From an uncultured virus (IMG/VR IMGVR_UViG_2927002766_000001) (Duplodnaviria; Heunggongvirae; Uroviricota; Caudoviricetes), in the IMG/VR virus record IMGVR_UViG_2927002766_000001: a stretch of 61,500 bases of DNA, one strand, 5' to 3'. The translations under genes and the position numbers were made by a program. Positions within the stretch are counted from its first letter, which is position 1; every line of letters starts with the position of its first letter. The notes under the pieces were generated by a model that saw only the letters and a list, made by a program, of their open reading frames with translations, was not told the origin of the DNA and did not search any database. Below, one piece after another: positions 25,773 through 26,575 of this stretch.

Positions 25773-26302
25773 CATGGGACTTTCAACCAAGGGACCGATC
25801 ACCCGGTATCGCGGATCGTGGGCTGACCTGGAGCGTCGGCGCCGCGAGGCAACGCTTGCGATGATCGAGGACGACCGTGTGGACGCCGCGATCACAATCG
25901 CCGGCCTCCGCGAGCAGGCCCGCGCGTTCGAGGGGATCGATCGTGTCCGAGGTCTCTGACGAACAAGCCGGCAGGCCTGTGCTCTACGCCAGGCTGAACG
26001 GCAACACGCTTCGCGCCAAATGGCCCGGCAAACGCTGGCACGGCGCATACCTCAGCATCCATGAGGCATGCGACGCGGCACACAAGGATGGACTCGAGTC
26101 ATTCCTCATCGACTACGTCGTCGAGGAAAACTGATCGGGTCTAACTGGGGATGCTTGATGAGGTCCCCACCAACCGCCGATGTTCGAAGTGCTCGGTTGG
26201 GCTTCGACGTCACTTCTACGAACTAGCATTACTTGTAGGCAGGGAACTTGACTAACAGACGACTCACACCGAGAGCGCGTCAAACCAGAAAGAGGAGCAC
26301 AA

Positions 26303-26401
26303 ATGCTCACCATAAACTTCTGCGGGACCATCAGGAGGTTCCGCCTGTTCAACTCTCGGGACAGACCAACCCTGCATCTTCTCATCCCACCCACTCCATG
26401 A
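26303..26401 (+). CDS. Micro-peptide 1 MLTINFCGTIRRFRLFNSRDRPTLHLLIPPTP
   Basis: GAGGAG RBS; shares motif with the next two ORFs. Confidence 0.6.
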   Translation: MLTINFCGTIRRFRLFNSRDRPTLHLLIPPTP

Positions 26402-26416
26402 GACGGAGACGTGCGA

Positions 26417-26491
26417 ATGCGAAAGATCCGGTATTACTACGCAAGGGACAGACCATCCCTCAGCTTCCACCTCAATCTTCAACACCAATGA
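26417..26491 (+). CDS. Micro-peptide 2 MRKIRYYYARDRPSLSFHLNLQHQ
   Basis: GGAG RBS 8 nt upstream. Confidence 0.55.
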   Translation: MRKIRYYYARDRPSLSFHLNLQHQ

Positions 26492-26500
26492 GATGGAGCC

Positions 26501-26575
26501 ATGGTCAACAAGCCGATGAAGGCCGGGCCCGTGCGGCGGGTTCGCTTCTACAATCCACGAGATAGACCGCGTTAG
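26501..26575 (+). CDS. Micro-peptide 3 MVNKPMKAGPVRRVRFYNPRDRPR
   Basis: GGAG just upstream (short spacing); shared motif. Confidence 0.5.
   Translation: MVNKPMKAGPVRRVRFYNPRDRPR

Follow-up and report, generated by a model that had tools for sequence, protein, structure and literature searches.

Tandem RDRP micro-ORFs at a syntenic locus of Bradyrhizobium phages: candidate translated leaders with a ribosome pause

In this work we analysed a stretch of 61,500 nucleotides (nt), hereafter the window, which is part of a phage genome of about 121 kb; coordinates are those of the window, and features lie on its + strand unless stated otherwise. Its closest named relative is Bradyrhizobium phage BDU-MI-1, and a virus record (G001) is 100% identical to it over 661 nt of the region considered here. 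This region is a gap bounded by an open reading frame (ORF) of 85 amino acids (aa), whose stop is at 26134, and an ORF of 534 aa, which starts at 26751. The G+C content drops from about 0.65 to about 0.50–0.56 across the gap, and the syntenic gap of BDU-MI-1 carries no annotation in its GenBank record. The original prediction placed in it three consecutive micro-ORFs encoding related peptides, followed by an operator-like motif, the 534-aa ORF and an M28 peptidase; the sequence and its translation confirm the three ORFs, and all the downstream elements were found, so that the order is small ORFs, gap with the array, 534-aa protein, M28-like peptidase and rIIA-like protein. Micro-ORF 1 (26303–26401; MLTINFCGTIRRFRLFNSRDRP-TLHLLIPPTP) is of a full-length type, and the single copy found in relatives is its orthologue. 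Micro-ORF 2 (26417–26491; MRKIRYYYARDRP-SLSFHLNLQHQ) is of a short type that lacks the hairpin A described below; its RDRP motif is at 26444–26455, and GTG at 26411 is an alternative start. Micro-ORF 3 (26501–26575; MVNKPMKAGPVRRVRFYNPRDRP-R) has an internal hairpin (26524–26544) and RDRP at 26558–26569, and is matched by our covariance model R1 with 29.4 bits (E 3.6e-6). The predicted GGAG is present ahead of each ORF, as Shine–Dalgarno (SD) sequences GAGGAG at 26292–26297, 5 nt upstream of the ATG, GGAG at 26405–26408 and GGAG at 26495–26498, just 2 nt from the ATG; the repeated junctions TGAgacggag and TGAgatggag are there as well. The pattern common to the three peptides is x-R-x-x-R-x-aromatic-x-x-RDRP, and RDRP is encoded by CGG GAC AGA CCA in copy 1 (26357–26368), AGG GAC AGA CCA in copy 2 and CGA GAT AGA CCG in copy 3. 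The tails that follow RDRP in the first two copies are C-rich and G-poor (16 C and 2 G at 26369–26401 in copy 1; 15 C and 2 G at 26456–26491 in copy 2) and contain CUCC or CCUC, able to pair with the GGAG of the next ORF. This pairing could mean SD sequestration or translational coupling, or the tails could be rut-like stretches, a reading to which base composition alone points.

Searches with the neighbouring protein and with a peptide profile recovered the family in 16 phage or prophage records, at the syntenic place upstream of the 534-aa gene; there are 26 copies, one to three in tandem per record, and the start codon and frame are kept across the 16 records. This conservation of place indicates that the shared pattern is not due to chance. 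Three copies are found in the window, in L003 (also L042) and in L004 (L-numbers designate related loci or records), two copies in L012 (whose terminator also harbours what is left, out of frame, of a third motif), two full-length copies in L023, and two short copies in L068 and L103 (MMITTHWYYPRDRP, MTRMYNARDRP). A single copy is found in L001 (BDU-MI-1), L014, L006, L007, L008 (also B. hipponense contig L019), L015, L016, L082 and L098. Tandem amplification occurred independently in at least three forms, giving the three copies of the window, the two full-length copies of L023 and the two short copies of L068/L103. The 534-aa gene follows the micro-ORFs in every carrier, they were found nowhere else, and the unit is linked to that gene rather than to what precedes it, since L015 retains the unit with a different upstream gene. 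In this locus a homologue of a 125-aa protein encoded further upstream in the window directly precedes the micro-ORF unit. In L008 (2768–3187, identical to L019) the first 22 codons are perfectly conserved and no stop is met for 117 codons after RDRP, the ORF crossing the copies of a motif described below and entering the start of the 534-aa gene out of frame.

The profile of more distant 534-aa homologues gave 75 loci, of which 13 carry a micro-ORF and 62 do not, a few of the 62 lacking upstream DNA; a relaxed motif scan of these 62 gave four matches, all unconvincing. The covariance model R1 found no further copy in 72 sources (438,743 bases, including the whole genome of the ~121-kb phage). 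Scanning species-representative genomes with the peptide profile gave robust matches in 3 of 401 genomes in the genus sample and 1 of 301 in the family sample, which are the same phages as the viral loci already in the set; weaker matches, inside long ORFs or using CGC, were judged to be chance. At the order level the 534-aa profile found one of 401 genomes, the one already known. A metagenome scan yielded one true locus, L042, near-identical to L003, and three further matches that proved to be unrelated proteins sharing RFRLFNSRD. These are undescribed phage micro-ORFs, as predicted, with the appearance of translated genes, and none of the nine products tested is present in a collection of 15 billion predicted proteins. 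The three peptides found nothing in PHROGs, the peptide profile gave chance-level matches only in PDB sequences (NEK1, E 0.44; Rhs, E 1.4), and the ESM Atlas gave no usable match. In full-text searches NSRDRP, NPRDRP and NARDRP brought up nothing but acronyms of RNA-dependent RNA polymerase, and a literature search for phage BDU-MI-1 listed no paper on this region.

The pattern of variation points to the peptide. Among five single-copy relatives (the L006 group) the proportion of synonymous differences (pS) is 0.27–0.61 and that of non-synonymous differences (pN) 0–0.10; L007 and L016 differ by four synonymous and no non-synonymous changes, and between the window and L004 six synonymous and three non-synonymous codon differences are found among the 52 codons of the three cores. 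In the tail of copy 2 the same two loci show no synonymous and four non-synonymous differences in 11 codons. The 22-codon core has a DNA identity of 0.86, which falls to 0.41 over the following 30 nt. The invariant columns are M1, R14, R19, D20, R21 and P22, so that the boundary of conservation is the proline of RDRP, and constraint ends there as it does in RAPP-like arrest peptides. After RDRP the ORF continues for one codon (copy 3), five residues (L006) or up to 117 codons (L008). Taken together these comparisons indicate that the micro-ORFs are under peptide-level selection, with a pN/pS of about 0.1–0.2.

These data also bear on the idea that the locus is an RNA or DNA repeat element, such as a small RNA with a repeated seed or a set of protein-binding repeats, in which the ORFs are incidental, or that the real gene is an antisense one of 117 aa (26264–26617, with GWSVP repeats). 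The high-depth RNA contig over the array and the covarying hairpin, both described below, would suit a structural element, and in the window the antisense frame stays open over 120 codons. A further point in favour comes from L012 (1317–1341), where a third GATAGACC survives out of frame and without a start codon and forms the 5' side of a good terminator (GACCC-GGGC-GGGTC-GTTTGAAAATTT); it looks like the remnant of a deleted third copy. A nucleotide motif kept while its frame is broken, named in the original prediction as the sign of a repeat, is seen in this remnant only: in 12 loci, 20 of 21 occurrences of GAYAGACC are in frame within an ATG-started micro-ORF, and L012 provides the exception. 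Moreover, variation falls on synonymous sites, one arginine being written CGG, AGG, CGA, CGT or CGC, and every copy keeps its ATG and SD. The antisense ORF was rejected as a gene, its frame not being conserved in relatives (24 codons in copy 1 of L004, 24 in L023, another frame in L001), as was a +2 frame ORF of 105 aa, open for just 3–16 codons in L007, L016 and L014. Rfam, searched over 25500–27300, gave three matches, all at E 0.77 or above and far below gathering scores. GAYAGACC was also considered as a site dispersed through the genome and dropped (5 occurrences in the window for 3.5 expected). We regard the repeat or antisense explanation as very improbable.

Within this conserved peptide one codon is frozen. 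For the second arginine of RDRP all 26 copies, from 16 records, use AGA, whereas the first is CGG in 6, AGG in 9, CGA in 7, CGC in 3 and CGT in 1, the aspartate is GAC or GAT, and the proline is CCA, CCG or CCT. The claim that different codons for conserved residues denote selection on the peptide therefore holds and extends to the relatives. AGA accounts for 14 of 385 arginine codons (3.6%) in 15 confident genes of the window. Each micro-ORF has 3–5 arginine codons, scattered and mixed, with the single fixed AGA and no run of one codon. The minimal unit is 11–13 residues (MTRMYNARDRP, MRKRFYNARDRP, MRKIRYYYARDRP), too short to fold alone; 10–22 residues precede the proline, short copies start with M-R-K or M-T-R, and there is neither a signal nor a membrane segment. 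A length of 11–13 residues is that which fills the upper exit tunnel of the ribosome.

The frozen AGA invites an explanation in trans, in which the array would hold peptidyl-tRNA-Arg(UCU) and ribosomes at the AGA-Pro pair, depleting the rarest arginine tRNA and biasing translation against AGA-rich (foreign, AT-rich) messages, an arrest-based and longer analogue of the minigenes that sequester tRNA. It would account for the AGA invariance, for the dosage-like tandem copies and for the high RNA signal. No tRNA gene was found in the window; the G001 phage genome has only tRNA-Trp(CCA) (L030 6052–6124) and tRNA-Asn(GTT) (L030 16355–16430), and so no tRNA-Arg(UCU) of its own. According to PMC2490762, rare AGA/AGG codons near the start act by tRNA sequestration, like toxic minigenes. 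The micro-ORFs share with the bar-type minigenes of phage lambda a phage origin, a rare codon as key feature and a possible effect via a rare peptidyl-tRNA. They differ in that the effects of minigenes, which involve drop-off, are described for 2–8 codons, while the micro-ORFs have 24–32, a conserved peptide and the AGA at codon 12–22. In addition, most relatives have a single copy, and phage genes use AGA at the usual low rate noted above, so that the phage itself would be hurt. A role as a tRNA sink is accordingly improbable.

Two hairpins accompany the conserved codons. Hairpin A lies inside micro-ORF 1 (26322–26344, GCGGGACC / GGTTCCGC), in codons 7–14, and ends 19 nt upstream of the AGA; its 8 base pairs join 26322–26329 with 26337–26344. 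In an ungapped codon-anchored alignment of 14 full-length copies, columns 20–27 pair with columns 35–42 in 91.1% of cells, compared with 77.8% in shuffles (none of 500 reaches the observed value), five of the eight pairs are changed on both sides (again 0 of 500 shuffles), and slid controls give 31–50% pairing. Hairpin A thus covaries; some amino-acid differences reflect a single compensated pair, one side of which changes codon 8 (glycine or glutamate) and the other codon 13 (phenylalanine or leucine). The L006 version of the hairpin counts 10 pairs, is followed by TTTTCAATTC and was called terminator-like by a scan. Copy 3 has its hairpin at the equivalent relative place, and the short copies (copy 2, copy 2 of L012, L068) have none.

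Hairpin B (26565–26594) is terminator-like: GACCGC-N8-GCGGTT followed by GTTTGTAAAT (GTTTGT), with a 5' arm that begins in the AGA-CCG codons of copy 3 and the stop codon TAG (26573–26575) in its loop. Its fold in the window has an energy of −11.6 kcal/mol. In every lineage a short G+C-rich hairpin with a T-rich tail follows the last copy, with stems that differ between lineages. Counted from the first base of AGA, its 5' arm begins at 0 to +18 nt in 13 of 14 lineages; L012, with +30, is the exception. The hairpin and T-rich run are clear in L098, L082, L012 and L006; in L098 (AGACCAC-N10-GTGGTCT-TTTTTTT) the AGA-CCA codons themselves form the 5' arm.

The two adjacent hairpins predicted ahead of the array (26146–26199), after the stop of the 85-aa gene, do fold as described (−21.6 kcal/mol), but no better than shuffled sequences (z −0.87). 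The loop of hairpin 1 contains a conserved GCTTGATGAGG with a possible −35-like CTTGAT within an inverted repeat. Hairpin 1 is retained with longer stems in L012 and L014 and is absent in the L006 group. In this hairpin (26146–26168) the loop GATGCTTGATGAGGTC is kept while the stem lengthens from GGGGA/TCCCC to GGGGGA/TCCCCC and GGGGAGA/TCTCCCC, and CTTGAT sits 17 nt before CCGATG. The region may be an operator-flanked promoter of the array, and an RNA contig starts close by, at 26202. The upstream hairpins are absent in most relatives, which speaks against a pair of the ARM/boxB type (ARM, RNA-binding arginine-rich motif). Taken as a whole, the gap has an unremarkable fold (z −1.12).

The RNA data are assembled contigs. 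In X1, a small RNA-seq run (Logan contigs), a contig of 313 nt (record 2; 26202–26514) has a depth of 27; the only other contigs of this run within 25000–28000 have depths of 2.7 (25004–25183) and 5 (27424–27617), which makes the array 5–10 times deeper, and the parts of this interval without X1 contigs are not evidence of silence. Run X2, whose RNA status is a guess, gave a contig (record 5) at 26410–26604 that ends just after hairpin B, and two runs of no recorded kind cover everything evenly. As contigs show neither strand nor true ends, all that follows is that an RNA library contains the array at a higher level than its neighbours. The contig of depth 27 and the X2 end after hairpin B fit an abundant short leader RNA.

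The operator-like motif is found downstream of the array, ahead of the 534-aa gene. A degenerate first copy of a GAATGCAAA motif is at 26618–26626, where relatives have a full CTTGAATGCAAA, and a GCTTGAATGCAACT motif at 26716–26729 (CTTGAATGCAA at 26716–26727) immediately precedes the SD and start codon (ATG) of this gene; relatives have two motif copies between the micro-ORF and the 534-aa gene. The window contains seven exact TTGAATGCAA sites, all on the + strand. Sites of the form (T)TGCTTGAATGCAAA are at 21701, 26718, 33680, 46248, 53827, 54530 and 59264, with the degenerate one at 26618, and with at most one mismatch there are 11 of them for 2.2 expected, a number reached by none of 100 shuffles. 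Each is 0–25 nt before an SD or a start codon, and further (AT)GCAAA repeats often follow. The motif is too near the starts for a −35 box and is therefore more likely a phage-specific promoter or a translational operator. A sigma-70 promoter scan found no site in this region of the window or in four relatives, and a candidate extracytoplasmic function (ECF) or sigma-E type promoter at GGAACTT (26243–26249) was dropped, its spacing not being conserved.

The explanation that we favour, tentatively and at slightly less than even odds, is that the array is a translated leader in which ribosomes are programmed to pause or stall at RDR(AGA)P, an event coupled to transcription termination. The micro-ORFs would be leader ORFs of a structured RNA ahead of the block encoding the 534-aa protein, the M28 peptidase and the rIIA-like protein, and it would be the act of translation that matters, not the free peptide. 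Two things would act jointly on the ribosome, the rare AGA with its following proline codon and the nascent chain ([IVM]-R-x-x-R-x-aromatic-N/Y-x-R-D-R-P). Having AGA in its P site and proline in its A site, and with the upstream chain filling the tunnel, it would pause or be arrested at RDRP in the manner of SecM RAGP and RAPP-like peptides. Hairpin A of the full-length copies, with the U-rich stretch behind it, would serve for pausing or termination and be melted by the translating ribosome, and a ribosome held at RDRP would cover or abut the 5' arm of hairpin B. Where the ribosome stands, and for how long, would then decide between termination in the leader and read-through, hairpin B acting as the putative terminator, and downstream expression would depend on the translation state of the cell, possibly on tRNA-Arg(UCU); both this signal and the direction of the effect are conjectural. 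The argument for a function of translation in cis is that the rare AGA is invariant, that the conservation boundary is at the proline, that a covarying hairpin lies inside the ORF and that a terminator-like hairpin lies at or after RDRP. With the minimal unit of 11–13 residues and the indifference to where, or whether, the ORF stops, these features make up the anatomy of a translated regulatory leader, and not that of a free-peptide gene.

Several observations weigh against this reading. RDRP is outside the published arrest cores, and an arginine at the third core position is not reported among them. Short copies are devoid of hairpin A. Hairpin B is short, its energies are not beyond those of shuffles (z −1.94 in the window, and −1.80, −0.10, −0.31 and −1.11), and a simple terminator scan called it on the + strand in only one of five loci (L006), missing it in the window, L098 and L082 and calling L012 on the − strand only. 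In the window no terminator-like hairpin follows copy 1 or copy 2. The distance of hairpin B varies from 0 to +30 nt, so that the direction predicted for the effect differs from case to case. Inspection of the folds by eye revealed no antiterminator pairing, and no systematic search for one was run. Because of the promoter- or operator-like motif between the array and the 534-aa gene, this gene need not depend on read-through. The RNA evidence consists of assembled contigs of one small run, and the 62 of 75 loci that have a more distant 534-aa homologue do without any micro-ORF. Finally, a model in cis does not readily explain tandem amplification.

The R-x-x-P arrest cores listed in PMC10987492 include RAGP, RAPP, RAPG, RGSP, RADP and RDGP; in PMC12992588, changing alanine to aspartate (RDPP) is partly permissive and the arginine is irreplaceable. 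RDRP is absent from the motif lists consulted in the former and has no occurrence in the latter. The micro-ORFs share with RAPP-like arrest peptides (SecM RAGP, ApcA RAPG, ApdA/ApdP RAPP and the RQH family) an R-x-x-P core, the R-D of RDRP being also that of RDGP and RDPP, conservation that ends at the proline, determinants in the 10–20 residues upstream, and the position of a small ORF upstream of other genes. They differ in having no signal or membrane segment, in lying upstream of genes other than secA, secDF or yidC, and in being phage-borne, tandemly repeated and frozen at one codon, AGA. With no more than 22 residues up to the proline, the peptide cannot be a monitoring substrate released by force, and in the absence of an export signal and of a sec/yidC context, and with a core that is off the lists, the micro-ORFs are not members of the RAPP-like family.

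Leader-peptide attenuators comprise the trpL/hisL type and the pyrBI type, in which the leader ORF runs through the terminator. The micro-ORFs resemble them as short SD-led ORFs in a structured leader, kept in place in 16 records, with an in-ORF hairpin and U-rich stretch comparable to a pause hairpin, with a terminator-like hairpin that overlaps the ORF or comes after it, and with a short RNA that appears abundant. They differ in their mixed arginine codons, which form no regulatory run, in having no antiterminator that we noticed, in the presence of up to three ORFs in series and in the separate, possibly promoter, motif before the downstream gene. The lack of a codon run and of an antiterminator visible by eye argues that this is not a classical amino-acid attenuator. 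TnaC, SpeFL and the Erm and Cat leaders are arrest leaders that sense small molecules. Like them, the micro-ORF products are very short and would be wholly in the tunnel at the stall, have a conserved aromatic residue and arginine, and have their stall site next to a termination signal. Unlike them, they have a proposed stall at a pair of sense codons, not at a stop, and no known ligand, and the PDB sequence search showed no similarity in sequence.

The most serious competitor of a pausing leader is that the micro-ORFs encode free peptides acting in trans, as linear motifs rich in arginine and aromatic residues, ending in RDRP, that bind a target of the host or the phage such as RNA, the ribosome or a defence protein, the tandem copies providing dosage or diversification. 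Selection at the peptide level, amplification that arose more than once, diverged paralogues, an SD for each copy and an RNA signal above the neighbours are all what such genes would show, and a small gene that stands alone would ordinarily end with a terminator. What it leaves unexplained is that AGA is invariant in 26 of 26 copies, that the stop may be anywhere, up to 117 codons on and inside the next gene, and that a covarying hairpin lies inside an ORF of 22 codons. Besides, nothing resembling the peptides turned up in PDB sequences, PHROGs or the Atlas, and units of 11–13 residues are unable to fold by themselves. We therefore consider free peptides possible but rather unlikely, and the specific roles put forward in the original prediction (inhibitors or decoys of a host or defence protein, ARM-like peptides, enzyme substrates) are not supported.

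The last of these roles leads to the genes downstream. The 534-aa protein (26751–28355) has no match in Pfam or NCBIfam and belongs to a large, unnamed family (205 matches) with invariant cysteine and histidine residues (C170, C316, C350). Many of its homologues are on Bradyrhizobium chromosome-sized contigs, which means that phages of this kind also occur as prophages. A confident AF2 model (pLDDT 84.6) has no PDB match at Foldseek E ≤0.001, and the likenesses of its predicted fold are weak, with values within the chance range (Z ≤5.4): one to GNAT proteins at residues 147–246 (Z ≤5.1, the rows including MprF, ATE1, Eis and HAT1) and one to FYVE zinc fingers at residues 329–381 (Z 5.0). The B. 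hipponense genome contains, away from this locus, a second and partial homologue (L047, G002:C1:64746–65195) that spans profile positions 93–242, corresponding to the GNAT-like part, within an open frame of 247 aa. The M28-like peptidase (28372–29376; phrog_4191, E 2.8e-80) has its start set by alignment with relatives, the ORF being open from 28333. Upstream of the gap, small ORFs at 24593–24889 and 24219–24596 encode one protein with a lipoprotein-like N-terminus (MKRAIILIAALLLAGC) and the other the 125-aa protein mentioned above.

Several short ORFs next to a large protein of no known family and a peptidase, in an order constant in the 16 carrier records, with a conserved N-terminal part and a variable C-terminal part resembling leader plus core, recall a cassette for ribosomally synthesized and post-translationally modified peptides (RiPP), in which the micro-ORF products would be precursors or substrates of the 534-aa protein and the M28 peptidase. 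The "core" would then be a single arginine in copy 3, five residues in L006 and 117 out-of-frame-looking residues in L008. The tail tracks the sequence of hairpin B and shows no conservation of residues, and such freedom in the tails, 1 to 117 codons long, speaks against their being modified cores or enzyme substrates. The ORFs are separated from the enzymes by hairpin B and two motif copies, the 534-aa protein matches no known RiPP enzyme family, its fold matches being the weak ones just given, and most loci with a homologue of this enzyme have no peptide. A conserved leader joined to a modified core with a known enzyme nearby, as in RiPP precursors, is not what these loci contain, and we give this possibility hardly any credence.

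In an extension of the favoured model, the phage-borne and tandemly amplified RDRP micro-ORFs would constitute a new class of arrest ORFs in which the frozen AGA turns the arrested ribosome into a sensor or a sink of tRNA-Arg(UCU). Through it the prophage would sense the translation or tRNA state of the host, for instance tRNA depletion or cleavage by a defence system or a competing element, and would either switch transcription of the 534-aa/M28/rII block or starve AGA-rich foreign messages; we consider this version quite unlikely. The arrest peptides described until now come, to our knowledge, mostly from sec/yidC or metabolic operons of cells. Should the stall prove real, the micro-ORFs would form a class of arrest peptides with a new core (RDRP) and a codon-specific requirement, phage-borne and outside the context of protein export. 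They would also provide a compact natural part that couples the state of the ribosome to termination in high-GC alpha-proteobacteria. The family is also an instance of conserved phage genes of 24–32 codons that escape annotation.

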